Origin: an uncultured Acidobacteriota bacterium
Lineage (GTDB): Bacteria > Acidobacteriota > Polarisedimenticolia > Polarisedimenticolales > DASRJG01
DNA: 64,000 nt
Direction of reading: 5' to 3'
Assembly: GCA_964619965.1 (NCBI GenBank)
Contig: CAZUGP010000058.1
Span: 5,198-69,197 of the forward strand
Each line of letters begins with the position of its first letter. Within the stretch, counting starts at the first letter, position 1. The notes below the pieces were generated by a model, which saw only the letters and a program-made list of their open reading frames with translations, searched no databases and was not told the DNA's origin. Position numbers and translations under genes: made by a program. This document shows, one piece after another, positions 9,937-36,093 of the stretch.

Positions 9937-10030
9937 GAGACCCTCCCCAACGTTCGACGCGGCCGCATTATCCCCGCAATGGGGTGGCGCGATCGACGGG
10001 GCGACGTAGAATCGTGCGCGAGGTGTTCCC

Positions 10031-21133: not shown

Positions 21134-21249
21134 GTCGTCTCCTCGGTCTCGCCATATTCGCACGGGTGCTGGAAAATCCCTGGCGCGGGGTCGGATTGGC
21201 CGTAGACTCCATGCGCCATACCCCTCCACACCGGAGAGAGGAGGACCCG

Positions 21250-21855
21250 ATGAAGCCGACTAGGAATCAGTTCGCTCTCGCCGGACTCGCGATGACCCTT
21301 GGCATCGTTACGTCATGCTCGAACGGATCGAACGACATGATGCAAGGCGGCCAGGGAGCCGTAAAGATCGTGATGTCGGCGTCCGCCGCGGCGCCGGTTG
21401 CAGCGGCCGTCACGGATGGCGGCGGATCGACGACCGATCGCCCACTCAAGGCGGCCAACGTCACCTTCGCAAGCATTCTCGCCCGCAACCTCGACGGCCA
21501 GCTCATCGACGTCACCATCGAATTGCCGGTGACCGTGGACCTGCTCGGTCTCGTCAGCGGCGGGTCGTTCACGCTCCCGGCAGGATTCCTGCCGCCCGGA
21601 ACGTACGATCAGCTCGTGATCGTCATCACCGAGGTCGAGCTCACTCTGGCGAACGATACGGTGATCACGATCGATCCGCCCGGCGGCTGGACCGCGGTGA
21701 TCCCAGTGAGAGAGACATTCACCGTCGCCGAAGGCCAGACGACCACCGTCAACATCAATTTCCGCGCCGACGGGTCGCTCCGCTGGCTCAACGAGCACTG
21801 GGAGTTCCACCCCGAGTTCGACTGCGAAAACCACGACGGCGGGGACGACGACTGA
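21250..21855 (+). CDS. lipoprotein, DUF4382-like
   Basis: Start MKPTRNQFALAGLAMTLGIVTSC (lipobox-like VTSC) with a GGAGAGAGGAGG RBS. The pattern of beta-strand-rich segments resembles DUF4382. Confidence 0.7.
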   Translation: MKPTRNQFALAGLAMTLGIVTSCSNGSNDMMQGGQGAVKIVMSASAAAPVAAAVTDGGGSTTDRPLKAANVTFASILARNLDGQLIDVTIELPVTVDLLGLVSGGSFTLPAGFLPPGTYDQLVIVITEVELTLANDTVITIDPPGGWTAVIPVRETFTVAEGQTTTVNINFRADGSLRWLNEHWEFHPEFDCENHDGGDDD

Positions 21856-21942
21856 TCGTCCGCCGGGGGGCGAGACTCGGGTAACGGGTTGTCGGTACGC
21901 AACGCAATTGGTGCCGAATCGACGATCTTGGGGTGCCTCTCC

Positions 21943-21971
21943 TTGACGGCCTCGGTTGGTCGCCGGATACT
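21943..21971 (+). promoter_or_regulatory. putative sigma70-type promoter of the phd/relE operon
   Basis: TTGACG (21943..21948), 17-nt spacer, GATACT (21966..21971), about 58 nt upstream of the antitoxin ATG. The same architecture is conserved at 26669..26697. Confidence 0.45.
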
Positions 21972-22028
21972 TCCGACTGAAGGCCGGTGCATCCGAGAAT
22001 CCGTATGTGCCGACGCGGAGGCCAATCG

Positions 22029-22289
22029 ATGACCCACAAGACCGCCGCAGAGGTTGGGGCGAAGCTCCCCGAGAATCTGAAGAGCGTCGAAACAACCGGC
22101 GAACCGGTCGCAATCGAAAGCGACGGCCGTACGGTGGCGGTCCTCGTGTCGGCGGAGGACTTTGCGCTCTTGCAACGGCTCCGCGAACAGGAAGAGGACC
22201 GCATCGATAACGCCGCGGCGGACGCGGCGCTTGCCGAGCCCGGGGAGAGCATTCCCCACGAGGTCGTAAAGGCTGAGCTAGGTCTGTAA
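22029..22289 (+). CDS. type II antitoxin, Phd/YefM family
   Basis: MTHKTAAEVGAKLPENLKSVETTGEPVAIESDGRTVAVLVSAEDFALLQRL is a Phd/YefM-like N-domain. It lies 5 nt upstream of the RelE-like toxin. Confidence 0.85.
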   Translation: MTHKTAAEVGAKLPENLKSVETTGEPVAIESDGRTVAVLVSAEDFALLQRLREQEEDRIDNAAADAALAEPGESIPHEVVKAELGL

Positions 22290-22294
22290 CGCCG

Positions 22295-22552
22295 GTGCTC
22301 TACCGGATCGAGTGGCGCCCCGTCGCGCGACGTCAGCTTCGCAAGCTCCCCACAGCCGTCGCGCAACGAGTCTTTGCCCTCGTTGACTCGCTCGCCAAGA
22401 ACCCGCGCCCGGAGGGATGCCGCAAGCTCGCCGGCTTCGATGCCCGCTTCCGGGTTCGCTCAGGTGACTACCGAGCCATCTACGAAGTGCGGGACACGGT
22501 GCTCGTAGTGCTCGTCGTCACCGTCGGCCACCGTCGCGACGTCTACCGCTAA
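22295..22552 (+). CDS. type II toxin, RelE/ParE family
   Basis: 85 aa with a GTG start. Family pattern: YRIEW...A.RQLRKLP......V...LAKNPRPEGCRKL...FRVRSGDYRAIYEV....LVVLVVTVGHRRDVYR. Confidence 0.88.
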   Translation: MLYRIEWRPVARRQLRKLPTAVAQRVFALVDSLAKNPRPEGCRKLAGFDARFRVRSGDYRAIYEVRDTVLVVLVVTVGHRRDVYR

Positions 22553-22584
22553 GGACGTCTCCCCCGATGAGGTAGCCTCTCCGC

Positions 22585-24219
22585 GTGGAACGAGGCGGGA
22601 AATCGAGAGCCGTAGCACGCCTTGCTTTGCTCGCGGGCGTTGCGGTGGTCGGCGTCTACCTGGCGCACGTCGTTTCGTATTGGCAGCAGATCAACGACGA
22701 CGCCTTCATCACGTTCCGGTACAGCAAGTTCCTGGCCTTAGGACGCGGTCCGTACTTCAACGTCGGGGAGCACGTCGAGGGGTACACCAACCCGCTGCTG
22801 ATGATCGTCATGAGCGCTTGGCTCGCCGTTTTCGGCGACGCCAACGTGCTCGTCGCGGCCAAAGTGATCGGGGTCGCGGCAGGCGTCGCCAGCCTCATCT
22901 TCACTTGGCTCTTGTGCCGCAGGTGGCTTCGGAGCGTGCCCGCGCTGGCGCCGTTCGCAACACTTCTCGCCTGGCTCGCGCCGGCGCTCGTCGCAACCCA
23001 GGCGGAGTTTGCTCTCAACAGCACGACGGGCCTCGAAACGACGCTTTTTGCCGCGGGGATCATGGCGGGTTTGTGCCTTGGCCTTTCGGCCGAGGAAGCC
23101 AATCGCTGGCGGGGCGCGGGCGCGGTGTTCGCGCTCGCCGTTTGGACTCGACCCGAGGGCGCGGCCGTTTTCTTTCTGGTGATGGGTGCGAGACTCGTCG
23201 GAGGCGCTTTTGGCAGCACGGCAGCGCGCCGCCGCTGGCTGTTGGACGCGGGCATCGGCGCCGCGGCAGTGATCACGTTGTTGCTTCTGCGCTTTTCGCT
23301 CTACGACGGCGAGCTGGTGCCCAACACGTACCACGCGAAACTCGGTGGCATGACGGGCCGATCGACGGCGTTCGGCTATGTGACGGGTCTCGTCCGGTGG
23401 CATTTGGCCTGGGTGGGGTGGTTGCCGATTCCTCTGGCACTCGTCTTGGCACCTCGCGACCTGCGCCGCTGGGTATTGCCGCCACTGTGCGTCCTAGGCT
23501 TCGGTGTGGTCGCGATCTTCCTCACCGGCCCCGATTGGATGCCGGGCTACCGCTTGCTCGTGCCGTACCTGCCGTTGTGGGGCGCCCTCTCGGCGCTCGG
23601 TCTGTGTCTCGTCGCGAAGAGCTTAGGATCTAGGCCGCAGTGGATCGGCGCGACGCTTCTTTTGGCGATGATCGTGGGCCTATTCGCGTGGCAGCATCCG
23701 GTGCGCTCGAGCTTCAGAAACTACCTCGTCACCCGTGCGCGCGGCTATCGCGAGGGGCACGTCGCCCTGGCCGATTGGCTGCACGACCGCGCGCGGGCAG
23801 GGGAGACCGCGGCGCTCATGGACATCGGCATCGTGGGGTTTAGAGACATCGACCTCAACATCCTCGACCTGACGGGGTTGACCGATCGGACGATCGCTAA
23901 CTCCCCCGGAGGGTTTCTCAAGAAGCGTTATCCATTGTCGTACGTCTTGGACCGCAAGCCTGAGTTCGTGGTCGTCGTGTACACGGGACCGGAGACGATC
24001 CGGACGGATCGCCCCATGTCGCTGGTCCCGTGGACCGAGATCGAGGGCCGGCTGGTGAATGATCCCACCTTCAACGCGCTCTACGTCCGTCGGCGCGCCG
24101 CCGATCCGGGCGCGGACCTGCTCCTACAGCTGGCCGCGCACTACGGCGCCGAGCGAGTCTTCCGCCACGCGTATCCTCGAAGGAGCTACTTCCTCTTCGC
24201 CTACGCACTGCACCCGTAA
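22585..24219 (+). CDS. GT-C fold polytopic membrane glycosyltransferase (ArnT/PMT-like; family unresolved), paralog 1
   Basis: About 12 hydrophobic segments. First-loop acidic motif [37 protein letters not shown]. Soluble C-terminal domain. Paralogous to 24224..26053. Confidence 0.75.
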
Positions 24220-24223
24220 CGGT

Positions 24224-26053
24224 TCACTCAAAGGGCGCTTCCGCTCCGTGCATTGCGGCGGCTTTTCGGATCGCGTCCAGATCGTGGGCGCTTTGAAACT
24301 GAAGTCGTGGAAACCTGAGCCGGGCCTGCTCGATCCCCTGAGGCAGCCACGCGACCAGGTAATGCGAGTCGTCCACCATCGCAAAGTGCCGCTCGCGCTC
24401 TTTCCCGTACAAGCTGTCGAGCTGCCGCCACAGCCGCGGATTGTCGGAGCCCCACAACAGGTGGGCGGACTCCTCGACCCAAAGGTCCACGCCACTCTCA
24501 CGCGCGTAGTCCCAGGTTGCGCTCTTCCCGTGGGCCGACATCTCGCGAACGAACGGGGAGTGCGCGACGTGGGCGTCCGTCAATCCGAGCTGATCGAGCA
24601 CGCGCAGGTTGGTGTAGTAGGGGATCGCGCCGACGCAATTCAAGGCGACGTACGTGTCCCGCGGAATCGTCCCGCGGGCGAGCAAATCGTTGAGCCATCG
24701 CGCCTCGGGGATCATCGTTGCCAGGAACAGCTCGTGCTCCTCCTGTCGGATGCCGACGAAATGCCGCGTGGTCTCGCGAACCAGATCGCGGTGCGCTCCG
24801 GCGATTGCGCGCAGCAGCGGGAGCCGGTAGATCGGGCTCCGAGTCGGGTCGAGAAACTCCACGGCTCCTGCGGTCTTACCGAGCCGCAATCCTGGGAAAC
24901 CGGGAACGTACGCGTCCGGGAACTGGACGTGCGCACGGTAGGGCAGCTCGACGATTCCGGCTGTTACGAGTGCTGCGCCTGCGAGCGTCAATGCCGTTGA
25001 CCGCCGCGTCGTCGCCAGTTGCCTGACGCCGTCGTACAGAAGTAAGTAAAGGAAAGGGAAGTAGAGGTCGAGCGGCCGATACTCGAAGTGGTCTCCGCCG
25101 ATCGAGGCGATGTAGATCGCATGGGGGATGACGATCGCCCCGAAAACAACGGGCGTGACGAGACTCGACCGCTTCTTGTGAAACAACAGCGCGGCGACGA
25201 CGAGCGGCACCCAGAGGTAGACGGCGTACTCGAGGCCGAACGAGGCGAGGTACCGGCCGCCCATGGACCACCAAGTCCGGCCATCGACCTTGGCATAGTA
25301 GGTATTGGGGAACCACTCGCCGTAGTAGGCCAGGCGGAAGAGGGTGTGAGCGACGACGACACCCGCGCAGATCGCAAACGAGCGAATCGTCCACGTCAAG
25401 CGGGCGCTTGTCCGCCGCCAGCGATAGAGGCAGACGGCGCCGAAGGCGCACGCGGCGACGAGAACCCCGTCAGGCCGCGTGAGGCATGCGAGCGCGAACA
25501 GCAACGCCCCGAGGGGAGGCACCCGCGCGGCGCCGTGCTGCAGCTCCCCATCCTCGTGGATCAGCCGCAGCGCTCCGGCGACGACGAGCAGCTCGAACAG
25601 CCGCGTCTCCAATCCGCTCGTCGACCAGACCGCAACACTTCGGGTGAGCGCGAGCAAGACCAACGGGATGAGGATCAGATAGGCGTTGCGTCCGTCGGGA
25701 CGATCGCGCCAAACGAACCGCGCGAGCGCGGCCCACATCCCCACGGTGGCGGCGATCGACACGATCGACGCAGCGAACTCAGGAGCGATGCCCACGACCC
25801 GGCCCGCTGCGAGCAACAGCACCCAGAGCAGGTTCGTGTACCCCTCGACCCGCTCGAACCCGGGATTGAACACGAGACCGTGACCCTCGGCCAGGTTCCG
25901 TGCGTAACGAAAGGAGATGAACGCATCATCGGTCAAAAACCGGTACCAGCCGGCGTGGGCGAGAAGCAAGATCAACGAGACGCCGAGTGCGACCAGTAAA
26001 GGCCACGGCGCGTTTCTTCCCGGGAGGTCGGTCGGTTGGGTCTTCACGGCCAC
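24224..26053 (-). CDS. GT-C fold polytopic membrane glycosyltransferase, paralog 2
   Basis: LTDDAFISFRYARNLAEGHGLVFNPGFERVEGYTNLLW matches paralog 1. Shared C-terminal block LD.(L/T)GLTD..(I/V)A(N/H)SP. GTG start. Convergent with paralog 1 with a 4-nt gap. Confidence 0.75.
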   Translation of the reverse strand: MAVKTQPTDLPGRNAPWPLLVALGVSLILLLAHAGWYRFLTDDAFISFRYARNLAEGHGLVFNPGFERVEGYTNLLWVLLLAAGRVVGIAPEFAASIVSIAATVGMWAALARFVWRDRPDGRNAYLILIPLVLLALTRSVAVWSTSGLETRLFELLVVAGALRLIHEDGELQHGAARVPPLGALLFALACLTRPDGVLVAACAFGAVCLYRWRRTSARLTWTIRSFAICAGVVVAHTLFRLAYYGEWFPNTYYAKVDGRTWWSMGGRYLASFGLEYAVYLWVPLVVAALLFHKKRSSLVTPVVFGAIVIPHAIYIASIGGDHFEYRPLDLYFPFLYLLLYDGVRQLATTRRSTALTLAGAALVTAGIVELPYRAHVQFPDAYVPGFPGLRLGKTAGAVEFLDPTRSPIYRLPLLRAIAGAHRDLVRETTRHFVGIRQEEHELFLATMIPEARWLNDLLARGTIPRDTYVALNCVGAIPYYTNLRVLDQLGLTDAHVAHSPFVREMSAHGKSATWDYARESGVDLWVEESAHLLWGSDNPRLWRQLDSLYGKERERHFAMVDDSHYLVAWLPQGIEQARLRFPRLQFQSAHDLDAIRKAAAMHGAEAPFE

Positions 26054-26155
26054 CGTGGATTTGCGCCGAGGGCTTCGTAATCATCACCGCGTCGCCCGGT
26101 TGCCAGCGGGTTGCACCGCGCAACTGTCCGCTGCAGTGTTGTCAGGCGACGCTCC

Positions 26156-26323
26156 TCAACGGTACACGTCGGAACGGTGGCGGACCGCGCTGATATCGAC
26201 AACATGCCCGGGATCCGATACGAGGCGTTCGATCCGACGAAAGACCCGAGTCCGTGTCGGCTCGCCCAACCGCTCCAGTTCCTTGCGCGCGCTTCGCGCG
26301 AACGTAATGGAGTATCTCGCCAT
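26156..26323 (-). pseudogene. RelE/ParE-like toxin with an in-frame internal deletion (55 codons)
   Basis: Absent from the ORF track because it is under 60 aa. Manual translation: MARYSITFARSARKELERLGEPTRTRVFRRIERLVSDPGHVVDISAVRHRSDVYR. The N-terminal roughly 38 aa and the C-terminal RHRSDVYR match RelE/ParE, but the central roughly 30 aa (the ...RVGDYR... core) is missing. The ATG overlaps the antitoxin stop (TAATG). Confidence 0.6.
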
Positions 26324-26511
26324 TACCGGCGCTTGCTGGGAAGGCGAAGCCGTCGCCGGACGCTTGCTAGAGTCTCTCGGGGCTCTTTGGCCCGCGATTT
26401 TGCGATGGCAACGTCGTAGAAGTCCTCCCAGAGTTCGGCGTTCTTCTTGAGGTCGATGAGCACCGCAGTCTTCTCGCCGTCATCGTCGACCAAGAACTGA
26501 ACACCTCGCAT
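26323..26511 (-). CDS. small antitoxin-like protein (62 aa), partner of the deleted RelE-like gene
   Basis: MRGVQFLVDDDGEKTAVLIDLKKNAELWEDFYDVAIAKSRAKEPRETLASVRRRL is a typical short antitoxin pattern. AAGGGAG RBS, start at the internal ATG at 26511, and stop-start overlap with the toxin remnant. Confidence 0.65.
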   Translation of the reverse strand: MRGVQFLVDDDGEKTAVLIDLKKNAELWEDFYDVAIAKSRAKEPRETLASVRRRLRLPSKRR

Positions 26512-26539
26512 GGTTGCTCCCTTCGACATCCCGCCTGCG

Positions 26540-26545
26540 ATTATA
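26540..26545 (-). promoter_or_regulatory. possible -10 box (TATAAT) for the 26511 antitoxin operon
   Basis: Perfect TATAAT on the minus strand, 28 nt upstream of the ATG. I found no convincing -35. Confidence 0.3.
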
Positions 26546-26668
26546 CCCGCAGAGCGCCAGAGATCTCCGCGGACAATGCCGGTTACGTGTCGGGTCCGGG
26601 GCACGGTGGCCGGGTTATCGGCCTGCAACGGAAGTGCCCCCGAATCGGGGCTTCCTGAGTGCCTCGCC

Positions 26669-26697
26669 TTGACGGTCACCTATGGTCACCGGATACT
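26669..26697 (+). promoter_or_regulatory. putative sigma70-type promoter of the second phd copy, with tandem GGTCACC repeats in the spacer
   Basis: TTGACG (26669..26674), 17-nt spacer, GATACT (26692..26697). GGTCACC occurs at 26674..26680 and 26684..26690, which may be operator half-sites. Confidence 0.45.
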
Positions 26698-26752
26698 CCC
26701 GGTGCACGCAGCGCATCCGAGAGTTCGAATGTTCCGGACAGGAGACCAAGCG

Positions 26753-27013
26753 ATGACCCACAAGACTGCCGCGGAGGTTGGCGCGAATCTCCCCGAGAAC
26801 CTCAAGAGCGTCGAAGCAACTGGCGAGCCCGTCGCTATCGAAACCGACGGCCGCACGGTGGCGGTCCTCATATCTGCCGAGGACTTCGTGCTGTTGGAGC
26901 GGCTCCGCGGAGAGGAAGAGGACCGGCTCGACAACGCGGCGGTGGACGCCGCTCGCGACGAGCCGGGTGAAAATATTCCCTGGGAGCGCATCAAAGCCGA
27001 CCTCGGACTCTGA
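26753..27013 (+). CDS. type II antitoxin, Phd/YefM family (paralog of 22029..22289; orphan)
   Basis: 86 aa. By my position-by-position count, 69 of 86 residues are identical to the first copy. The downstream toxin is reduced to a stub. Confidence 0.85.
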   Translation: MTHKTAAEVGANLPENLKSVEATGEPVAIETDGRTVAVLISAEDFVLLERLRGEEEDRLDNAAVDAARDEPGENIPWERIKADLGL

Positions 27014-27016
27014 CGG

Positions 27017-27079
27017 GTGGCCTATCGGATCGCGTTGCTTCCGGCCGCTCTGCGCGACATCAACAGCCTATCCCGCAAG
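27017..27079 (+). pseudogene. 5' stub of a RelE/ParE toxin gene (about 21 homologous codons)
   Basis: GTG 3 nt after the antitoxin stop, then VAYRIALLPAALRDINSLSRK, which aligns with MLYRIEWRPVARRQLRKLPTA of the intact toxin. Homology ends at the RBS and start of the N-acetyltransferase gene. Confidence 0.6.
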
Positions 27080-27090
27080 CGGAGGACGCG

Positions 27091-27870
27091 ATGCGGGTGG
27101 ATGCGTACCTCGATCGTATCGGTTACGAGGGCCCGAGGGTCAAGACGGCGGAGACCCTGACGCAGCTCCATCGCGCCCAGATGCTTTCAGTCCCGTTCGA
27201 GAACCTGGACATCCACCTCGGCATCCCGATCGGCCTATCGGTGTCGGACTTCTACGCGAAGATCGTGACGCGCCGGCGCGGGGGATACTGCTACGAGCTC
27301 AACGGACTGTTCGCGTGGCTGCTGTCCGAGTTAGGGTTTCGCGTGTCGCTGCTTTCCGGGCGCGTCGTCTCTTCGGGGCAGCTCAGCCCGGAGTTCGACC
27401 ACCTGCTCCTTCTCGTCGAGCACGACGGCCAGTGGATCGCAGATGTCGGATTCGGTGACTCGTGCCTGGAGCCGCTCCGCGTGGATCCCGCTCTCGATGA
27501 CGAGCAGAACGGGAGTGGGTACTCGATCGCGCATGCGGAGGGCGCGTGGACGGTACGGAGACGCCGTGAGCAGGCCTGGGAGCCTCAGTACATGTTTTCG
27601 CTGACCCCACGACGCCTCGACGAATTCGCGGCGAGGAACTGGTTCCAGCAGACCTCTCCGGAGTCGCACTTCACGCGGAGCACGATCTGCTCCCTGGCGA
27701 TGCGCACCGGCCGCATCAGCCTGTCGGGCCGACGGCTCATCGTCACCACCGGGGATTGTCGGGAGGACCGGGAGGTACGCAGCGTGGAGGAGTACCGGGG
27801 CCTTTTGATGAGCGAGTTCGGAATCGCGCTCGGTGAGCGGGACGCTGATGTTCTCTTCGGTGATCCTTAG
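27091..27870 (+). CDS. arylamine N-acetyltransferase (NAT)
   Basis: MRVDAYLDRIGYEG...LSVPFENLDIH, catalytic Cys block RRGGYCYELN, His/Asp blocks FDHLLLLV and ADVGFGD. GGAGGA RBS. Confidence 0.9.
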   Translation: MRVDAYLDRIGYEGPRVKTAETLTQLHRAQMLSVPFENLDIHLGIPIGLSVSDFYAKIVTRRRGGYCYELNGLFAWLLSELGFRVSLLSGRVVSSGQLSPEFDHLLLLVEHDGQWIADVGFGDSCLEPLRVDPALDDEQNGSGYSIAHAEGAWTVRRRREQAWEPQYMFSLTPRRLDEFAARNWFQQTSPESHFTRSTICSLAMRTGRISLSGRRLIVTTGDCREDREVRSVEEYRGLLMSEFGIALGERDADVLFGDP

Positions 27871-28143
27871 CTACTTGGTGTCGCGGCCGTACGGCACGCA
27901 TCCCGTCGCGCAGGCGACGTACGCGTAGCAAGAGTTGCTGTACACGTGGCCGTCGCTGCAGATCACCGGGTCCCACAAAGCGAAACAAGCAATGCCTTTT
28001 CGCGGGCAGCCGCTCCCAGCCCCGCCACCGCCGCGAGCGGGCTTGGCCGCCGCGGCCGGGCTCGTGGCGAGGAGCGTGAGCACGCCGAACACGAACACGC
28101 CGAGTAGACTCGCCAGGAGTGTTCCTCGAAGAAGCTTTCTCAC
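27871..28143 (-). CDS. small secreted Kazal-like cysteine-rich protein (90 aa)
   Basis: GTG start preceded by AAGGAGGA. Signal peptide VRKLLRGTLLASLLGVFVFGVLTLLATSPAAAA. The mature part has 6 Cys, with DPVICSDGHVYSNSCYAYVAC resembling the Kazal core PVCG.DG.TY.N.C. Confidence 0.65.
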   Translation of the reverse strand: MRKLLRGTLLASLLGVFVFGVLTLLATSPAAAAKPARGGGGAGSGCPRKGIACFALWDPVICSDGHVYSNSCYAYVACATGCVPYGRDTK

Positions 28144-28423
28144 CGGGTCCTCCTTGTGAAAGGTGATTCGAATTCTACCCGGGCATTCAAGATGCGGCAT
28201 GCCGACGAAAAGCGCTTGCGACGGGGAGCAGCATTCCGCTTTCCCAGCCCGCGCATTTCGCGATACTTTCGTCGATTTCCGGTGGCCGGAACCACGGAAG
28301 GGGAGTCGATCGTCGATCCTGGCCGATCCTAGGAGGCCGTTTTCCTGGGGAGAGGCCTGCCGGCACGCTCGAATCGCCGTACCGCGACAAAAACATCGCC
28401 GATTTGACCTTTCACCGGCGAGA

Positions 28424-29140
28424 TCACTGGACCAAGCTCTCCAAGCGCCCGACATACCTAGACGTGTGCGCCGTGCGGCTTAGCACTCTGCGCAGTGATC
28501 CTCGCCACGCTTCGCGGCCTTCCTTGACGAGGAACACGGTCATCGCGAGAGCGCCGACGGGGTCCGCCCACCACCATCCGAACATCGTGTTCAATGCGAC
28601 GCTCGACAACGTGATGAGCGATAACCAAAAACACGCCGTCGCCTGAAACGCGTCGGCTTCGAGGGCGCGACTCTCCAGCGCCGTTGCGGCCCGCCGTTTC
28701 GCGCGCGCAAGCCAGAACATCACGCCCAGGGAGATCGACGTCAATCCGATTCCGACGACGCTCGGTTGCGGCCGTGCATGCGTCCAGAGCGTCCACACCG
28801 CGTCGCCGGCAACATACGCGGCCAGCAGGAACAGTGATCCCGCGACCAGCCGATGGGCGGTTCGGTCGAGGCGTTCGATCGCCGCCGGGCTCGCGGTCCG
28901 TCGTTCCGCCGTCAGACGCCAGATCAGCACCGCGCCCGAGGCACTCTCGACGAGACTGTCGAGGCCGAATCCCAGGAGCGCCACGCTGCCCGATGCCAGC
29001 GCGGCCGCCACGCCGACGCCCGCTTCGATGAGACACCAACCGACGGTCAGGTATTCGAGCCGCAGCGCCCGCGCAATGAAAAACGTCCTCTGGCCAGTTG
29101 GTGGGGTCGCATCTGCGGGTCGCGCTTCGGTCATCGACAC
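28424..29140 (-). CDS. cation diffusion facilitator-like membrane protein (TMD-only)
   Basis: Six hydrophobic segments with acidic residues in TM2 and TM5-like positions (GFGLDSLVES, ALEADAFQ), followed by ADPVGAL...KEGREAWRG. The exact 3' end is uncertain. Confidence 0.65.
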   Translation of the reverse strand: MSMTEARPADATPPTGQRTFFIARALRLEYLTVGWCLIEAGVGVAAALASGSVALLGFGLDSLVESASGAVLIWRLTAERRTASPAAIERLDRTAHRLVAGSLFLLAAYVAGDAVWTLWTHARPQPSVVGIGLTSISLGVMFWLARAKRRAATALESRALEADAFQATACFWLSLITLSSVALNTMFGWWWADPVGALAMTVFLVKEGREAWRGSLRRVLSRTAHTSRYVGRLESLVQ

Positions 29141-29518
29141 AACCTCCGGAGCCTAGTCCCCACTACCGTAGCCTAGCTGGGGTATTCAGGAACCTCCCGA
29201 AGGCGGCGCGCGTAGAACACGGCAGCAGCGGCCCGCGCGCAACGGGCGAGGGAGATGCATGAGAATCGTCGTCATCGCCGTCGTGTGGACCCTCACGACG
29301 ATCGCAGGGTCGGCGGCGCCAGGCGGGAATACGAGATTGCGTTGCAGAAGGACCCGAATCGGGAGTCGGTGCAGAACAAGCTGAAGCGGTACAAAGTGTG
29401 AGCGCACTGCGATCGGGTAACGGATGAAAGTGCTAGCCATCCATGGTGGTTCCGAAATTGTCCACCCCGGGATGACTCCCGGTGGAGTGCACAAACGCCG
29501 GCAGGCGTGGCCACGGCG

Positions 29519-29960
29519 CTACGTGCTCTTCGGCCGAATCTTCCCGCCCAGAAAATCGCCAAGAACTGTGACGACTCCGAGTTCGCGCGCCCAGTGCTCG
29601 AGATAGCCACGGTCCAACTCGGCGCCCTGGACCGCCACGATGCCTGCCGCGTCGCCGAGTTGCCTCTCGGATGGCGTGATGTGATTCCAATAAAGCTTGT
29701 GAAGGAGCGTGTCCTCGGCGGTCGCGATCCACGCCGGCTCTCCGAACAAGGTCACCCGCAGGCGTCGCGCGAACATATTCTCCTCGAACGGAACCCGCCG
29801 GAGCATCCAGAAATCGACCTTGAGCGCGGACCGCCGATCGATCGCGTTGAACATATGGTTGCTTCGAAACGCGCCGCGCACGGAGGCCGCTTCGAGGGCA
29901 CGGAAGACCGATCCCGTTGAGCCGCCGCAGGCAATCGGCGAGGAGCTCGCGCTCAGTCAA
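29519..29960 (-). pseudogene. nucleotidyltransferase-like gene remnant (frameshifted, internally deleted)
   Basis: A TTG at 29960 overlaps the upstream stop and gives LTERELLADCLRRLNGIGLP in one frame. The 120-aa ORF (GTG at 29881) continues in another frame: FRSNHMFNAIDRRSALKVDFW...AEDTLLHKLYW...SERQLGDAAGIVAVQGAELDRGYLEHWARELGV. The segment expected to carry the GS...D.D nucleotidyltransferase motif is absent. Confidence 0.45.
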
Positions 29961-30186
29961 CGGGGTCACCGGCCTGGCGTTCCCCCTGTCCGCGAATGAG
30001 AGCAAGGCGGGCACGCAGCTGGCGTTCGACCTCGGCGTCGTCGGCATTCGGGCGCCGCGAGCGGATTCCCTCTCGTGCCACATCGCACGCGAGCTCGTGG
30101 AGGGAAAGCGCTATCCCGAGGCGCTGTTCGCCGGTCATCCGTCGGTACCTGGCGATCTGTTCCTCGAGCGCGGCTTGCGGGTTCAT
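29953..30186 (-). CDS. hypothetical small helical protein (77 aa), upstream partner of the nucleotidyltransferase-like remnant
   Basis: MNPQAALEEQIARYRRMTGEQRLGIALSLHELACDVAREGIRSRRPNADDAEVERQLRARL. Its stop overlaps the TTG of the downstream remnant. Confidence 0.55.
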   Translation of the reverse strand: MNPQAALEEQIARYRRMTGEQRLGIALSLHELACDVAREGIRSRRPNADDAEVERQLRARLALIRGQGERQAGDPVD

Positions 30187-30260
30187 CGAGTCATTCTACT
30201 ACCCGCGATGGAAGGTGGTGCTCCGCTGTATCATCGTCGCTACGGAGATCATCCAATCCC

Positions 30261-32729
30261 GTGAGGCCCGCGATCTTTGTGCTTGGGCTGGTCTTGTTGC
30301 TGCCCGCGAGGGCGGCGACGGTTGTGGTGTCGGTTCGGGAGCGAGGAGCCGGGCCGATAGCCGAACAGCGGGTCGTCATCGAGCCCACCGGCACTCCCGG
30401 CGGGCTTCCGACATGGAATCGCGCTCGGATTCAGTTGCGCGTCACTGGAGCGGACGGGAAGGCCGTCTTCGAGCAGATCCCGGTCGGACGTTACACGCTC
30501 AACCTCGAGGGGATCGCTCAGCCGGGCCTGATCAACCCCGCGGCGAATCCGCTCGCCCCGCCGCCACAGATCACGATCGCCGCGGACGGAGACAAGGTCC
30601 AGGTTGAGATCGAGGTCTGGCGGGGGAGTCTCCTCCGCGCCGAAGTTCTTGTGGACCGCGCCAACATTCCGCGGGGTGCCAAGGTGGTCTTGCGAAGCCT
30701 CGACGGGCAGCCCACGGCAGATCTCCGCCTCGATGCTCAGGGGCGCGTCGAACGGCTTCTTCTCCCGGGACGCTATGAGGCGGAGCTCGCAATCCCGCCG
30801 GGGTATCTGTTGATGGATCTCGTCTGGAACGGAGAGTCCCTTCCCGGCCACGTCGCCCGCTTCGATGTCCGCGAGGACCCACGCCCGCAGAACGTGAGCT
30901 GGTACCTGAGCACGCCATGCCTGATCACCGGCAAGGTGGCGGACGCCTCCGGAGAATGCCCCGTCCAGCTGGTCGCCACCCTGAAGCAGCCCGGCCCGTG
31001 GATCGTCGCGGCGACGCAGCGAGGTGGATCCACCTTTCAGTTGGTGCCCCATCAAGAATGGGTCGCAAACAGCAAATGCATTTACCGCCTCTGGCTGCCC
31101 GACGGCCAATGGATCGTGCAGCCGCAAGGCGAGTACTTGCTGACCGCAGAGCCCGCATCGGCCGACGTCACGATCGCGCCCGGCGAAACGCGAACGCTCG
31201 ACTTCCAGCTCGAGACGAAAGAAGGCGACGGCCTCAAGAAGGGCCAGCCTCTCATTGTCAGCGTCCGTTCGCCTGAGGGCTGGGGAATCGTAGGAGCGGT
31301 CGTCGAAATCTGGCCACCAGACGAAGACACGCTCTCGGCCACCCCAGTCAGAACCGGTAAGACGGAAGGGTACGCGGGATCCGTGTCGTTTCGGGACCTC
31401 GCCGCCGGAAACTACCGAGTGGCTGCGGGGGCCGACGACTTCCTCGAAGGAACCGCCACGGTGGAGGATTACAACCCGAAAGCGAAGGAACCGACAAGCG
31501 TCACGGTGACGCTGCGCGCAGGCGCCAAGCTGCACGCGCGCGCTGTGGATGACAGGGACCGTCCGGTCCAAGGCGTGGAGCTGAGCTACACGCGCCTCTC
31601 GCCACTCCCCAAGTTGGCCCTCGCCAACGAGGGCATCGCGGCGAAAAAGCGACAGGGCACAGGGCTCTCCGACGTCACGGGGCACATCGAGATTCCGGGT
31701 CTCTACACCGGCGATTACCGCGTCCTAGCCCGCATGACGGGGGAGCAAGCCGCAACCCGCTTCGTCGTCCTTCGACAGGGCGGCGCGAAACACACCCGCT
31801 CGATCGAGGTGCGTCTCAACGAGGGCGAGCGCTCCGACGTGGATCTTCTCGTGCTGCCCGCGGCGAGTCTCTCCGGGCGCCTGGCCTGCGCAGACCGCGG
31901 CACGATGCCGCCGAAGGTATCGTTCCGGATCTTTCCGGCAGGCTCGCGCGTTGAAAACCTCTGGACCGAGAAGGAACTCAAGGCGGACGCGGCGAGCGCA
32001 CAAGACGACGTGGTGCTGCGCGGGGATGGAGCGGATCTCTTCCACTTGGGACCCTTGCCGCTGGGCGAGTATCACGTGGCCGCCCGTCCCGACGGCCAGG
32101 TCTACTGGAGCTGGGCGTCGAACGAGCTCGTGCCGGATCGCGCGACGGTCTTTCCGGTCGCCGAAGCCGCGACCCTGGATACGGGGGTCGTCGAGATCGA
32201 GTGTGGGCCGCTCGTGGCCGTGGTGCCGGACATCCTGTCCAAGGAGCCGGTACCCGATCTGCATCTCGGCGCCGTGCGCGCGACATTGCGTCGATCATCC
32301 GACAAGAAGAATCCGCGAAGCGTAAGCGCGGACGTCGAGGTGCACGCCGCCCGCGCGTTCCTCCGCCGACTGCAGGAAGGCAAGTTCATGACAGCGGTAA
32401 CCGTGGAGCACCCGTACCTGATCCCGCCGTCGATCTCCGTGCCGGAGCGGGAGCTCCCGCTCACTCGTGGAAGCTTCGCCGAGATCCACGTGGACTTCGA
32501 CCGGCTCGGAGGGTTGGTGGACGTGCGGGGAGACGGAAAGGTCGCGCGCATGACACCCGAAGAAGGGAGCCCGGTGGTCCGCGCCGTAGCAAGCCAAAAG
32601 GCCACCTTCCCCGGGACGCCTCCCGGCACCTACCGCGTCGAACTGTGCGGCGATCCCGATTGCGCTTCCGTGACCGCCGCATGGAAGGGCGTTGTCGTGC
32701 GGGCGGGGAGGACGACGTTCTTGCCGTGA
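30261..32729 (+). CDS. large secreted protein built from repeated carboxypeptidase-regulatory-like / Ig-like domains
   Basis: GTG start gives the signal peptide VRPAIFVLGLVLLLPARA. At least seven repeats follow the pattern ...G.A/V.F..(I/L)P.G.Y.(L/V)... (for example GKAVFEQIPVGRYTLNL, FRDLAAGNYRVAAG, GLYTGDYRVLAR, LPLGEYHVAAR, PPGTYRVELC). Confidence 0.75.
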   Translation: MRPAIFVLGLVLLLPARAATVVVSVRERGAGPIAEQRVVIEPTGTPGGLPTWNRARIQLRVTGADGKAVFEQIPVGRYTLNLEGIAQPGLINPAANPLAPPPQITIAADGDKVQVEIEVWRGSLLRAEVLVDRANIPRGAKVVLRSLDGQPTADLRLDAQGRVERLLLPGRYEAELAIPPGYLLMDLVWNGESLPGHVARFDVREDPRPQNVSWYLSTPCLITGKVADASGECPVQLVATLKQPGPWIVAATQRGGSTFQLVPHQEWVANSKCIYRLWLPDGQWIVQPQGEYLLTAEPASADVTIAPGETRTLDFQLETKEGDGLKKGQPLIVSVRSPEGWGIVGAVVEIWPPDEDTLSATPVRTGKTEGYAGSVSFRDLAAGNYRVAAGADDFLEGTATVEDYNPKAKEPTSVTVTLRAGAKLHARAVDDRDRPVQGVELSYTRLSPLPKLALANEGIAAKKRQGTGLSDVTGHIEIPGLYTGDYRVLARMTGEQAATRFVVLRQGGAKHTRSIEVRLNEGERSDVDLLVLPAASLSGRLACADRGTMPPKVSFRIFPAGSRVENLWTEKELKADAASAQDDVVLRGDGADLFHLGPLPLGEYHVAARPDGQVYWSWASNELVPDRATVFPVAEAATLDTGVVEIECGPLVAVVPDILSKEPVPDLHLGAVRATLRRSSDKKNPRSVSADVEVHAARAFLRRLQEGKFMTAVTVEHPYLIPPSISVPERELPLTRGSFAEIHVDFDRLGGLVDVRGDGKVARMTPEEGSPVVRAVASQKATFPGTPPGTYRVELCGDPDCASVTAAWKGVVVRAGRTTFLP

Positions 32730-32732
32730 GAA

Positions 32733-32778
32733 TTGGAGCCGGCACCCAGACTTGAACTGGGGACCTGCTGATTACGAA
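32733..32778. repeat. 46-nt perfect copy of the 3' part of tRNA-Thr(CGU) (att-like, distal copy)
   Basis: ttggagccggcacccagacttgaactggggacctgctgattacgaa is identical to 35067..35112. Cross-checked through the shared RNQQVPSSSLGAGS translation of two minus-strand track ORFs. No acceptor 5' strand or D-arm follows, so it is not a tRNA gene. Confidence 0.9.
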
Positions 32779-32980
32779 GTGGCCTGTTACCGGGTGATAA
32801 CGCTCGGAACGGCGACATGTCTCAAAGGCGCTGGGCGTAATTTGGGCACAACGAAACGGCGAGCGAAGCCCAAAGCACGCGGGCTCGTCTACCCGCCCGG
32901 ACGATGTCACCGCCTTGACTCCGGAGTTGTCTGAGGGAACGTTTCGAGAGGCCGATCCGCTTTCGCCTGGGGAGAATTCC

Positions 32981-34309
32981 ATGCCTCGATCAGCCGTGCG
33001 CGTCCTCCGGTTCTCGCTTGTGGCGTTCGGGATCATCGCCTTGATTCCCCCCTCGTTTTCGGGGCCGAAGGTGCCGGTGCCGAGGATCGTCCAGCCTCCC
33101 GACCGGTTCTTCCAGGAGGGCAGCAACCTGGCGGTAGACGTGGGGTACGACGGAGCGGACAACGGGTCGAAGCAACGTCGCTCGGACATGTCGATTCAGC
33201 TGATCGTTGACGGAGCCCTGATCGAGCAGCGAACCTTGCCATCGGACAGCGAGGTCAGCACCTTCACGGTTCCCGTCAACGCCGAAGACCCGATCAGCTT
33301 GATCCAGGTCTGTATCCAGCAAGGGAGCTCAGGATCCGACAATCGGGTGTGTCGACAAGTGCGAGCAGCAGGGATCGGGGATTTCGACCGCGTCCGTCGC
33401 TCGCTGGAAGAGATGAACGAGATTTCCGACGCCGTGGTGCGTTACTCCGTCTTGCGACTCGGGTATCGCGGCGTTCCACAATCGCTCGAACAGCTTGTTC
33501 CGGATTTTCTCGACCGCGTGCCATCGGCCAGTCCGTTCTCCACGCCCTACCAGTACACGGCCACCGATGAGCACTTCACGCTTCGCCTCGTGATTCCCGG
33601 TCGCGTCGAGATCCGCAACGAAGATGGCACGTTCACGAATCTGCCTAGGGGAGCGATCACGGTTCGTGAAGCGGCCCGACTTACACGGCAGCAACTCGTG
33701 GAGCTTGCCCAGTCGGTGGAGTCGTATCGCGTCGACTACAACCGCTTCCCGGAACGGATCGAGGACTTGGCCCCCATCTACCGGCGATTCATACCCGTGG
33801 TGGATCCCTACGGGCATCCCTATGTGTTTTCACTCGCACCCGATGCGTACGTACTGACTGGTCTGGGGAGGGATGGGCTGCCGGGGGGCGAGGGGTTCGA
33901 TGCGGACAGCAAAGTGACCAACGGCATGCAGCTCGTGGCGACGACGCCCTACCGGGGCCGCTACGAGTATCTTCGACGCACATTCATGGACATGTCTCAG
34001 GTCTCGGCGGCGTTGTCGTATTTCCAGGAACAGACCGGAACGTGGCCGAACTCGCTTTCTGAGCTTGTGGGCGGCCCATGGTTCTCGTGGCCGCGTGTGT
34101 TCTCAGACGACTGCGGGAACCCGTACGACTACCACGTGTTCGACACTGGTTTCGGTAATCGGGAGTACCGACTTCGGGCGTTTGGATGCAATGGCGTTCC
34201 GTACACCGATCCGTTCGAGAGCCTCTTGTACTTCTCGGCGGACACTGCCGGATACGTCTCGGCGCCGGGGTGGAGATTCGCCTATCGCTGGCCGGGGCTG
34301 TTTGACTGA
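32981..34309 (+). CDS. signal-anchored protein with three tandem GspG-like (type II secretion pseudopilin globular) modules
   Basis: Start MPRSAVRVLRFSLVAFGIIALIPPSFS with a GGGGAGAA RBS. Modules end in SPFSTPYQYTATDEHFTLRLV, VDPYGHPYVFSLAPDAYVLTGLGRDGLPGGEGFDAD and DDCGNPYDYHVFDTGFGNREYRLRAFGCNG. Compare the T2SS-G pattern DPWG.PY.Y....Y.L.S.G.DG..GG.G.D.D. There is no prepilin G/FTLIE leader. Confidence 0.7.
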   Translation: MPRSAVRVLRFSLVAFGIIALIPPSFSGPKVPVPRIVQPPDRFFQEGSNLAVDVGYDGADNGSKQRRSDMSIQLIVDGALIEQRTLPSDSEVSTFTVPVNAEDPISLIQVCIQQGSSGSDNRVCRQVRAAGIGDFDRVRRSLEEMNEISDAVVRYSVLRLGYRGVPQSLEQLVPDFLDRVPSASPFSTPYQYTATDEHFTLRLVIPGRVEIRNEDGTFTNLPRGAITVREAARLTRQQLVELAQSVESYRVDYNRFPERIEDLAPIYRRFIPVVDPYGHPYVFSLAPDAYVLTGLGRDGLPGGEGFDADSKVTNGMQLVATTPYRGRYEYLRRTFMDMSQVSAALSYFQEQTGTWPNSLSELVGGPWFSWPRVFSDDCGNPYDYHVFDTGFGNREYRLRAFGCNGVPYTDPFESLLYFSADTAGYVSAPGWRFAYRWPGLFD

Positions 34310-34394
34310 CGAAGACCCGGGGCGTTTCCTCTCCTCCACGACCCGCGGTGATGCCATAATCGCGCGAGACTTCACCGAGAAAGGGGAGGCCAGG

Positions 34395-34685
34395 ATGCTC
34401 CGTGACGATGTCCTTGCGAAAATCGCGGCGCAGCGGGAGTCGCTGGACCGATTTCACGTCAAGACTCTGGCCGTATTCGGGTCGGTTGCGCGAGGCGAAG
34501 CTCGAGCCGAAAGCGACGTGGACCTGCTCGTCGAGTTCAGCGTTCAGGTCGGCCTTTTCGAGTTCGTGCGCCTGAAGCGGTTTCTCGAAGAGATTCTCGG
34601 CGCCCGAGTCGATCTCGTTACGCCCGGAGCGCTCAAGCCGCAGCTCCGCCAAGCCGTGTTGCGGGAGGCGGTCCGTGCCGCCTAG
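34395..34685 (+). CDS. nucleotidyltransferase-domain antitoxin (MNT)
   Basis: GSVARGEARAESDVDLLVEF minimal nucleotidyltransferase motif. AAAGGGGAGG RBS. 11-nt overlap with the HEPN gene. Confidence 0.88.
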   Translation: MLRDDVLAKIAAQRESLDRFHVKTLAVFGSVARGEARAESDVDLLVEFSVQVGLFEFVRLKRFLEEILGARVDLVTPGALKPQLRQAVLREAVRAA

Positions 34686-35016
34686 AGACTGGCGCATTCG
34701 CATCGAGGACATCATCGAGGCTGCGACTGCCATCGCAGGCTATGTCCAGGGACTCTCTTACGAGGAGTTCGCGAACGATCGCAAGACGGTCGATGCAGTA
34801 GTCCGCAATCTCGAAGTGATTGGCGAGGCCGCGCGGCACGTTCCCGATACCGAGAAAGAGCGATTTCCGGAACTGCCGTGGGCGGACATGGCGGACATGC
34901 GGAACGTGCTCATCCACGAGTACTTCGGCGTCGATCTCACGATCCTTTGGAAGACCGCGAGCGTCGACCTGCCGGCGATTCTCCCAGCTCTGACACGAGT
35001 CATCGAGGGCTCGTAG
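34675..35016 (+). CDS. HEPN-domain toxin (DUF86/HepT-like)
   Basis: GTG start. RNVLIHEY (Rx4H HEPN motif). Classic MNT-HEPN gene order. Confidence 0.88.
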   Translation: MPPRDWRIRIEDIIEAATAIAGYVQGLSYEEFANDRKTVDAVVRNLEVIGEAARHVPDTEKERFPELPWADMADMRNVLIHEYFGVDLTILWKTASVDLPAILPALTRVIEGS

Positions 35017-35067
35017 TCGGACCGAGCCGGGCTCTCCATTTGTCCCCGGGATCCACGTTCCTTGATT

Positions 35068-35143
35068 TGGAGCCGGCACCCAGACTTGAACTGGGGACCT
35101 GCTGATTACGAATCAGCCGCTCTACCAACTGAGCTATGCCGGC
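35068..35143 (-). tRNA. tRNA-Thr (anticodon CGT), CCA encoded
   Basis: Hand-folded cloverleaf: acceptor GCCGGCA/TGCCGGC, D-stem GCTC/GAGC, anticodon stem GCTGA/TCAGC with loop TTCGTAA, variable AGGTC, T-stem CCCAG/CTGGG with loop TTCAAGT, discriminator T, CCA. 76 nt. Confidence 0.92.
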
Positions 35144-35250: not shown

Positions 35251-36093
35251 ATGCTCGATCGGTTGGCGGCTTCATTCGTTCGGCGCATTCTCCATCCTCC
35301 GCCACCCGAGTCGTGGCCGCTTCCTGCCGCGCTCTCGGCGCAGGCGGAAGATGTCTCGATACCCGCGGCCACGCTCCCGCTGAAGGCGTGGCTCGTGCGC
35401 CCGTCTGGACGCCCCGCGGGGACCGTCGCTTTCGTGCACGGCTGGGGGCATGACGGCGGGCGCATGGCGGGACTTTCGGGGCACGTCGTGGCGCGCGGGA
35501 TGAGCGCGTTGCTCGTCGATCTACCGGGACACGGACGCACGGGAGCGGTCGAAAGCTATAACGCGGCGCTGATGGTCGATGACTTGCGCGCGGTGAGGGA
35601 TTGGATCGCGAAGCGGGCGGGGCTGCTCGCGCTGCCCGCGGCGATCGTGGGCTTTTCGTTCGGGGGGCTCGGCGCGTACGTCGCGGCGTCGCGCGACGCG
35701 CGATGGGCCGCGCTGGTCGTGCTCGCCGCGCCGCTCGGGGCGATGGCTGCGGCGCGGCTGTACCTCGATGACAAGGGACTCCCCGGCCGCTGGCTCGATG
35801 GGATGGTGCGGCGCTCGTTCACCCGCAGCGTCGGCATCGACCCGGATACCTTCGATGCGGAGCGGAACCTCGGTTCGATCCGGGTTCCCGTGATGGTTGT
35901 GCACGGAGAAGAGGACGAAGTCGTCCCGGTTTGGCATGCGGAGCGGGTCGCCGCGGCGGTGCCGGTGGGTCTTGCAACCGTGGTGCGGGTGCCCGGCGCG
36001 AATCACAGCGCCGTGCTCGTCGACGATGTCGTCGGCGAGCGTGTCTCGGAGTTTCTCCTGACGCAGCTGACGCGGGCGGGGGAGAGATCGTGA
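35251..36093 (+). CDS. alpha/beta hydrolase
   Basis: FVHGWGHDGG and the nucleophile elbow GFSFGG. C-terminal VHGEEDEVVP...H block. Confidence 0.85.
   Translation: MLDRLAASFVRRILHPPPPESWPLPAALSAQAEDVSIPAATLPLKAWLVRPSGRPAGTVAFVHGWGHDGGRMAGLSGHVVARGMSALLVDLPGHGRTGAVESYNAALMVDDLRAVRDWIAKRAGLLALPAAIVGFSFGGLGAYVAASRDARWAALVVLAAPLGAMAAARLYLDDKGLPGRWLDGMVRRSFTRSVGIDPDTFDAERNLGSIRVPVMVVHGEEDEVVPVWHAERVAAAVPVGLATVVRVPGANHSAVLVDDVVGERVSEFLLTQLTRAGERS

Follow-up and report, generated by a model that had tools for sequence, protein, structure and literature searches.

Why chromosomal toxin–antitoxin (TA) loci are numerous, clustered and variable is a long-standing question, and a locus in an uncultured Acidobacteriota bacterium bears on it. 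In a 64,000-nt stretch of this genome (contig CAZUGP010000058.1, positions 5,198 to 69,197; hereafter the window, to whose positions all coordinates refer unless a related locus is named), two direct repeats, copies A and B, bracket 4.3 kb of DNA, and each contains a promoter-like site, a phd antitoxin gene and the 5' end of a parE toxin gene. A first-pass annotation of the sequence took them for the outcome of a TA duplication, or of the insertion of a cassette with its own copy of the module, and supposed that recombination between them could remove a pair of GT-C glycosyltransferase genes. Is the repeat a duplication that still recombines, or does it have another origin? Our analysis favours another origin. 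With a probability of about 0.7, A and B are anciently diverged Phd–ParE modules inside a TA cassette array that is anchored at a tRNA-Thr gene and largely fossilised in the window.

Copies A and B are diverged Phd–ParE modules

Local alignment of the two copies (Table 1) gave 351 identical positions of 458 (76.6%) in the same orientation, with ends close to those noticed earlier (about 21886-22355 and 26612-27079). A repeat search delimited an ungapped core of 300 nt (21989-22288 and 26713-27012) with 79% identity. Identity amounted to 71% (42/59) in the 58 nt upstream of the -35 box, 79% (23/29) in the promoter, 71% (41/58) in the 5' untranslated region (UTR), 80% (208/261) in phd and 69% (37/54) in the first ~50 nt of parE, the similarity reaching ~144 nt upstream of phd and being weak into parE. 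The longest identical run was 16 nt, followed by runs of 15, 13 and 12 nt. Several claims of the first-pass annotation were reproduced here, namely the identity of 69 of 86 residues between the antitoxins, the TTGACG-N17-GATACT site in each copy (the sole promoter-like matches in 5.6 kb) and the extension of the similarity beyond the antitoxin coding sequence into the promoter and farther upstream. An alignment of the upstream regions only scored 74, against 16.5 ± 2.2 for shuffled sequences (maximum 30), and the score of 29 obtained upstream of the -35 box alone was reached by 1/2000 shuffles.

The repeat is not an assembly artefact, because independent Logan contigs from SRR9952630 span both copies, reproducing positions 19904-26942 and 26913-29734. 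Inside phdB (26913-26942), these two contigs share an overlap of exactly 30 nt (k-1). This is an assembly-graph branch, which implies that another sequence in the sample carries the same 30-mer; phdA is excluded as that sequence, since A and B have no common run longer than 16 nt.

Copy A is an intact type II module, in which a Phd/YefM-domain antitoxin lies directly upstream of a toxin with the ParE/RelE fold, the two genes forming a bicistronic, antitoxin-first unit with a 5-nt gap. The toxin had been named RelE; its placement in the RelE/ParE superfamily holds, and the Pfam assignment is ParE_toxin. It was 83% identical to ParE2 of a related locus, L095, over a 64-residue tblastn segment and 86% identical over the full length. 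In copy B, the toxin-like sequence ends at about codon 21 (~27079) and the region of an arylamine N-acetyltransferase (NAT) gene replaces the rest; copy B is an orphan antitoxin locus, in which phdB lacks a functional toxin partner. The residual codons (parE_B') matched the ParE proteins of L107 and L118 at 13/21 and 12/21 residues, as compared with 8/21 for ParE_A. A third pair between the copies, tox3 and anti3, had been described as an unrelated TA remnant. It is a remnant, its toxin having an internal in-frame deletion; the toxin belongs to the ParE family, and the antitoxin alone is unrelated. Both tox3 and parE_B' are predicted to be inactivated toxins. The B-type ParE of L117 (6008-6196) is likewise truncated, to 62 aa instead of 85, a decay event in this toxin type separate from the one in the window.

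Comparison of four modules, namely window A, window B and two from a sister lineage (L095_85 and L095_86), showed that the promoter and the N-terminal half of phd were equidistant among all of them (84-88% nucleotide identity). The C-terminal half of phd together with parE placed window A with L095_86 and L003, and parE_B' grouped with the intact ParE of L107 and L118. The A-type orthologue in L085/L095 aligned with 21871-22553 at 84%, and the homology of copy B to the intact B-type module of L107 covered 26632-27079. Between phdA and phdB, the proportion of synonymous differences (pS) was 0.50, the corrected synonymous divergence (dS) ~0.82 and dN/dS 0.14. PhdA was 95% identical to the protein P0121, had homologues at 91-95% in many contigs and more than 40 clusters of homologues from other genomes at 85-95% identity, as against 80% for PhdB (P0172); the closest other homologues of PhdB (87%) were likewise nearer to it than PhdA. 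A local segmental duplication was considered and rejected on the dS of 0.82, on the PhdA–PhdB identity of 80% versus 95% for PhdA–P0121 and on the different toxin types (A-type and B-type), and the in-place duplication proposed earlier falls with it. By this comparison, A and B appear to be a case of ordinary paralogy between anciently diverged copies.

The promoter core, GCCTTGACGGT.AC....GGT.ACCGGATACTT, was unchanged in six modules from four genomes, and the upstream p-distance between A and B (29%) was lower than the synonymous p-distance (50%). Because of these two observations, the non-coding similarity is best read as a family-wide conserved regulatory region and not as a signature of duplication, with an operator probably located inside the promoter spacer. 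An operator or promoter common to a family can keep non-coding sequence conserved, and such conservation alone is no proof of recent duplication. In the far-upstream 58 nt, A and B were slightly more alike (69%) than either was to the L095 modules (50-60%). An inverted repeat, GTTGY-N6-GCAAC, was observed ~100 nt upstream of the -35 box in both copies (21895-21912 and 26621-26638) and at ~15825 in L095; it is a perfect palindrome in L095_86, is absent from L107 and L109, and may be a second operator. The phd 5'UTR of L109 (~9900-9985) and L107 (~9925-9985) consists of tandem pentanucleotides, AACGT or AACGC, with ~9 units in L109, and replaces the UTR type of the window modules.

A cassette array anchored at tRNA-Thr

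Copies A and B both lie between a DUF4382 lipoprotein gene and a tRNA-Thr(CGT) gene. This interval was compared with relatives available as metagenome-assembled genomes (MAGs) and metagenome contigs, at ~70-95% protein identity. It measures 1.26 kb in L107, where it holds a single Phd–ParE module only, 13.2 kb in the window and ~19 kb in L085/L095 (JAQB* MAGs of the sister lineage). The right backbone, tRNA-Thr(CGT)–hydrolase–aldo-keto reductase, is kept in the window, L085 and L107, and the left backbone, sulfatase–flotillin–NfeD ... DUF4382, is common to the window and L085/L095. In L085/L095, two direct Phd–ParE modules stand ~6 kb apart and enclose different cargo, comprising a pair encoding a 164-aa protein and an Rv0078B-like antitoxin, an insertion sequence (IS), a PemK TA locus and VapBC. 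The segment between the copies is accordingly not conserved among relatives, the sister lineage holding an entirely different content.

Positions 32733-32778 are identical to the tRNA 3' end (35067-35112) at 46/46 nucleotides and open an attachment-site (att) repeat that continues into a conserved arm. This att+arm copy and the tRNA gene bound a 2.3-kb element that contains a 464-aa protein gene and an MNT–HepT pair. Direct repeats identical to a tRNA 3' end, which characterise tRNA-anchored elements and cis-mobilizable elements (CIMEs), are thus present in the window at 32733-32778; around copies A and B they are found solely in the orthologous loci of L085, L106, L117 and L118.

L085 has five further att copies (3770, 4682, 9700, 10538 and 11840), all in the same orientation, which bracket each Phd–ParE module precisely, and its A-type orthologue (9841-10524) fills nearly all of the att-bounded unit 9747-10537. 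Every non-tRNA att copy runs on into the ~73-nt conserved arm. A pattern scan of JGI metagenomes identified ten more contigs with the repeat, and the ~120-nt att+arm unit delimits cassettes in L085, L106 and L110-L119, the Phd–ParE cassette of relatives being a unit of 0.84-0.91 kb. In L117, with att copies at 5467, 6313 and 7160, a B-type and then an A-type Phd–ParE cassette are adjacent with a pitch of 846/847 nt, and the tRNA gene follows the cassettes at 11327. In L118, two att copies enclose one B-type module; in L113, two enclose a RelE/HTH pair, after which VapBC follows; L111 has a DUF4160/HTH pair and L115 an MNT–HepT pair. Across 22 att+arm copies, mean identity was 96.6% in the 47-nt core and 71% in the arm. 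The locus in L106 is an orthologue of the window's junction between anti3 and phdB (22/22 anti3 residues, ~88% nucleotide identity), keeps the 5' end of anti3 and carries an att+arm just upstream of its phdB-equivalent phd, exactly where ~135 nt are missing from the window. A MAFFT alignment of window B to the L106 att/arm was judged partly spurious, GGTTRTC...GCAAC belonging to the module's own upstream region.

We propose that a single Phd–ParE family, with a conserved autoregulatory promoter/operator and a conserved N-terminal, DNA-binding antitoxin half, would have diverged in the toxin-binding half and the toxin into A and B types. The interval in related Acidobacteriota is made of tandem cassettes, each starting with a 46-nt tRNA 3'-end copy and the ~73-nt arm and many carrying a TA operon alone. 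Repeated site-specific integration at the tRNA gene by a tyrosine-type integrase acting in trans could have produced such an array (tandem accretion), its elements being either mobilised as mini-cassettes or decayed to addictive TA stubs. Anatomy, homologies and att repeats are observations here, while the mechanism by an integrase, the sequence of events and the role of the operator are deduced from them. The array of the window would be partly fossilised, with one att+arm left, tox3 and parE_B' inactivated and unrelated genes interleaved, namely an AftB-like GT-C pair and a NAT–CDF block; the att copies of A and B were presumably lost, because their orthologues in L085 and L106 are att-bounded. 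The recombination sites that structure the region would be the 46-nt tRNA-derived repeats and not the A/B repeats, and no tRNA-derived repeat flanks the GT-C cassette of the window.

Alternative explanations

Several observations weigh against this proposal. Neither att nor arm remnants were detected beside A or B by an ungapped scan allowing up to 16/47 mismatches or by nhmmer at E < 10, and the att scans, together with nhmmer searches that used one profile for the whole att+arm and one for the arm by itself, recovered only the 32733 copy and the tRNA gene in the window. Earlier att-bounding of A and B is deduced from orthology with L085 and L106. No integrase domain was found by Pfam in the island open reading frames (ORFs) scanned or in the related loci fetched, and the island of L085 yielded one IS-type rve transposase only. 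Furthermore, an att copy is lacking to the left of the L107 module, and the Phd–ParE family may have resided at the site before any array. Gene order is more widely scrambled among relatives, some differences being ordinary rearrangement, and all genomes are MAGs or metagenome contigs. The lack of att remnants beside A and B and that of a left att copy in L107 would suit plain scattered paralogy, in which A and B were never att-bounded and lie near the tRNA-Thr array by coincidence, as would the A-type toxin module of L003, which occurs in another context beside a GDPD gene. We nevertheless regard coincidence as unlikely, since the A-type orthologue is att-bounded on both sides in L085 and L117, its homology to window A nearly fills the L085 unit, the att+arm of L106 sits exactly at the ~135-nt gap of the anti3|phdB junction, and both copies fall within the DUF4382–tRNA interval. 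An assembly or binning artefact, with the MAG contig a chimera fused at a TA gene that occurs repeatedly, would account for the break of the Logan contigs inside phdB with its 30-nt overlap. This is scarcely credible, as the overlap is exactly k-1 and the contigs jointly reproduce the window over both copies, base composition is uniform, and gene order remains syntenic with L095, L107 and L117 to either side.

The model that the first-pass annotation had put forward, in which either a TA locus underwent duplication on the spot or an incoming cassette brought a copy of the module along, and ~450-nt repeats recombine to switch the GT cassette on or off in the population, agrees with the direct orientation of repeats around 4.3 kb, the far-upstream likeness of A and B, the varying inter-module content between genomes and the Logan graph branch within phdB. 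RecA-dependent exchange has a minimal processing segment of ~23-27 bp and is strongly inhibited by 20% divergence. Against a requirement of ~25 bp or more of perfect identity, the longest run here is 16 nt at 77% overall identity, and because identical runs do not exceed 16 nt at ~77% identity, clean deletion between A and B by homologous recombination should be very rare. Exact-protein look-ups of GTC2, NAT, P0001 and PhdA returned contigs of the same sample only and no deletion or presence-absence variant; a search of genome contigs using the GDPD protein from the flank found nearest relatives at 74% identity with synteny broken on both sides and gave no direct indel test. The dS of 0.82, the greater proximity of PhdA to orthologues of other genomes than to PhdB, the different toxin types and the absence of the branch 30-mer from phdA also speak against such a switch, which we consider very improbable. 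Of the idea of a variable surface-modification locus, the variability survives, in that content does differ among relatives; the repeat should not be taken as a phase-variable surface-modification switch.

A more far-reaching possibility, which we hold only tentatively, is that the interval is an active, integron-like system of undescribed kind, in which an unlinked integrase captures, stacks and reshuffles sub-kilobase TA cassettes at the tRNA gene. The cassettes would then be the Phd–ParE, VapBC, RelE/HTH, MNT–HepT and DUF4160/HTH operons, each with the 46-nt core and 73-nt arm, and the higher identity of the core than of the arm would mean ongoing recombination and not recent common descent. 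Under the preferred reading of an array largely fossilised in the window, the att system may also be active at present.

A relocatable GT-C glycosyltransferase pair

The two genes enclosed by the copies were correctly recognised as convergent GT-C paralogues, GTC1 and GTC2, whose products are 35% identical over ~300 aa. Neither has a Pfam match. An AlphaFold2 model of GTC2 (predicted local distance difference test score, pLDDT, 90.9; predicted template-modelling score, pTM, 0.91) retrieved AftB by Foldseek with E = 3.8e-10 and a template-modelling score (TM) of 0.55, together with ArnT, ALG9, EmbA/B and AglB. The modelled structure is a multi-helix membrane fold with an acidic DD/DxD motif predicted in the first extracytoplasmic loop, as expected of GT-C enzymes; D42 and D43, which align with the DD motif of AftB, were invariant in an alignment of 35 homologues. 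More than 2,800 matches mark the family as a large one. Mycobacterial AftB (PDB 9dlf/9dlh) shares with these proteins the GT-C fold, the N-terminal DD motif, a length of ~600 aa and a C-terminal soluble domain. It differs in having ~20% identity to the window proteins, whose scores against the NCBIfam equivalog model NF041481 for AftB, a terminal beta-1,2-arabinofuranosyltransferase (56.9 and 22 bits), are far below the 1050-bit cut-off. The mycobacterial AftB substrate is not expected in an Acidobacteriota host. GTC1 and GTC2 share fold and superfamily with AftB, and nothing closer.

The same convergent pair was found in L083 (346-3956; 77% nucleotide identity over 3.4 kb), where it is inserted ~10 kb away, exactly between the orthologues of gene X (156 aa) and of a sulfatase/TPR gene. 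The two genes are direct neighbours in the window, the stop of one and the start of the other overlapping as TGATG at 12975-12978, and in L003 different genes again follow gene X. Because L083 has the GT-C pair and L003 other genes there, the gene X–sulfatase junction is a second hot spot of rearrangement. The GTC2 of L084 stands behind a GGDEF–EAL gene that is unrelated. No repeat is common to the flanks of the pair in the window and L083, the homology being restricted to the two coding regions (22636-26023), and no att or arm flanks the pair in the window by mismatch scan and nhmmer. By these differing positions, the pair is a relocatable unit of two genes, its ends unmarked by att or any other shared repeat. 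Other GT-C-type genes stand beside the array or backbone in relatives, namely a GT2+PMT_2 fusion in L117 (1819-4476) and a PMT/PMT_2 gene in L107 (1-963); envelope glycosyltransferases thus recur in the neighbourhood, from families other than the AftB-like pair.

Other features of the interval

The features of the locus are listed in Table 1. The pair of the 164-aa protein and the Rv0078B-like antitoxin is common to the arrays of L085, L110 and L117, where it is att-bounded, and is a probable fourth TA-like pair; the L085 orthologue of the 164-aa protein showed weak NTP_transf_5 similarity. An 885-aa gene of L117 was rejected as a homologue of the 884-aa gene of the window, the former being the GT2+PMT_2 fusion and the latter a CarboxypepD_reg-domain protein gene. 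The ~100 nt of non-coding DNA at 28257-28363, which separate the CDF gene from a small ORF, resemble two segments of L095 (4279-4377 and 6087-6172) at 75-77%; over 40 nt, they match L109 5327-5366 with 92% similarity. No Rfam family matches this stretch, which may represent a small RNA or else a dispersed repeat. Rfam identified the tRNA only in 21.7-35.3 kb, and no compositional island was apparent at 15-34 kb, where GC content and skew are uniform.

Table 1 Features of the DUF4382–tRNA-Thr interval and its borders (window positions)
Feature	Position	Strand	Evidence
DUF4382 lipoprotein gene, left backbone	21250..21855	+	Pfam DUF4382; orthologues beside interval in L095, L107
Repeat copy A (regulatory region, phdA, parE_A 5' end)	21885..22335	+	Local alignment to copy B
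Promoter-like site, module A, TTGACG-N17-GATACT; GGTNACC-like spacer repeats (putative operator)	21943..21971	+	
phdA antitoxin, 86 aa	22029..22289	+	Pfam PF02604 (PhdYeFM_antitox), E = 1.9e-10
parE_A toxin, 85 aa, intact	22295..22552	+	Pfam ParE_toxin (PF05016), E = 3.6e-12
GTC1, AftB-like GT-C glycosyltransferase paralogue, 544 aa	22585..24219	+	35% identical to GTC2; weak NCBIfam AftB match; 78% orthologue in L083
GTC2, AftB-like GT-C glycosyltransferase, 609 aa	24224..26053	-	PDB AftB 9dlf, E = 1.8e-11, DD motif aligned
tox3, ParE-family toxin, 55 aa, 31-residue internal in-frame deletion	26156..26323	-	Pfam ParE_toxin, N-terminal part only, E = 0.004; alignment
anti3, putative antitoxin of third TA pair, 62 aa	26323..26511	-	No family match
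Repeat copy B (regulatory region, phdB, parE_B remnant)	26611..27062	+	Local alignment to copy A
Promoter-like site, module B, TTGACG-N17-GATACT; spacer GGTCACC-TAT-GGTCACC	26669..26697	+	
phdB antitoxin, 86 aa	26753..27013	+	Pfam PF02604, E = 8.3e-9; 69/86 identical to PhdA
parE_B' remnant, ~21 codons, B-type ParE	27017..27079	+	Similarity to L107/L118 ParE
Arylamine N-acetyltransferase (NAT), abuts toxin truncation point	27091..27870	+	Pfam Acetyltransf_2, E = 1.7e-69
Cation-efflux (CDF) gene	28424..29140	-	
164-aa protein and Rv0078B-like antitoxin pair	29433..30186	-	Pfam Rv0078B; 91% and 88% identical to L095 genes
884-aa CarboxypepD_reg-domain protein, ends 4 nt before att copy	30075..32729	+	
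att+arm repeat: 46-nt tRNA-Thr 3'-end copy and ~73-nt conserved arm	32733..32855	+	nhmmer E = 6e-42; 88-91% to five L085 copies
464-aa protein with T2SS-G-like segment, first gene of att-bounded element	32915..34309	+	Homologue after att copy in L119
MNT-like nucleotidyltransferase and HepT TA pair, beside tRNA	34065..35016	+	Pfam NTP_transf_2, E = 9.9e-15; HepT-like, E = 3.7e-27
tRNA-Thr(CGT), 3' end towards interval	35068..35143	-	ARAGORN; Rfam tRNA, 70.9 bits; same tRNA in L085, L088, L107
Alpha/beta hydrolase, right backbone; then aldo-keto reductase (36090-37052)	35251..36093	+	

Significance and comparison with known systems

The repeat alone is routine, consisting of two TA paralogues that have their autoregulatory region in common. 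Its context is of wider interest, as TA modules accumulate beside a tRNA gene in minimal att-bounded units that would be either mobilised in trans or the last addictive remnants of decayed islands. With a 46-nt core, a 73-nt arm and cassettes of ~0.85 kb, the array is a compact and testable system for the question of why chromosomal TA loci are so numerous, clustered and variable.

As in known type II Phd/YefM–ParE/RelE systems, the module of the window has the antitoxin gene first, a 5-nt gap and the PhdYeFM_antitox and ParE_toxin domains, and its predicted promoter overlaps GGTNACC repeats, as autoregulation would predict. The "mix and match" evolution of type II TA systems is matched by the conserved DNA-binding half and variable toxin-binding half, and toxin decay that leaves orphan antitoxins also occurs in known modules, with no essential difference.

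Tandem accretion of integrative elements and CIMEs at tRNA 3' ends is established (PMC5704250), and there, too, successive elements are set apart by direct repeats that match the tRNA 3' end exactly. CIMEs likewise lack integrase and transfer genes, and TA modules are their typical maintenance cargo. In contrast, the units described here are tiny (0.84-0.94 kb), often consist of a TA operon alone and are stacked up to five or six deep, and every one carries the same ~73-nt arm; no helper element or integrase was identified in the loci scanned. Sedentary chromosomal integrons resemble the array in their ordered, small, promoter-carrying TA cassettes, their repeated recombination site and an order shuffled between relatives. 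They differ in that the present loci have no IntI gene, attI or attC-like site: the scanned ORFs contain no integrase, the repeat between cassettes is a tRNA-Thr 3' fragment with its arm and not attC, and the array is anchored at the tRNA gene. A literature search found no description of a tRNA-anchored TA micro-cassette array, which is not proof of novelty. We regard the array as a moderately interesting variant of the known tandem-accretion islands, from which it differs in scale.

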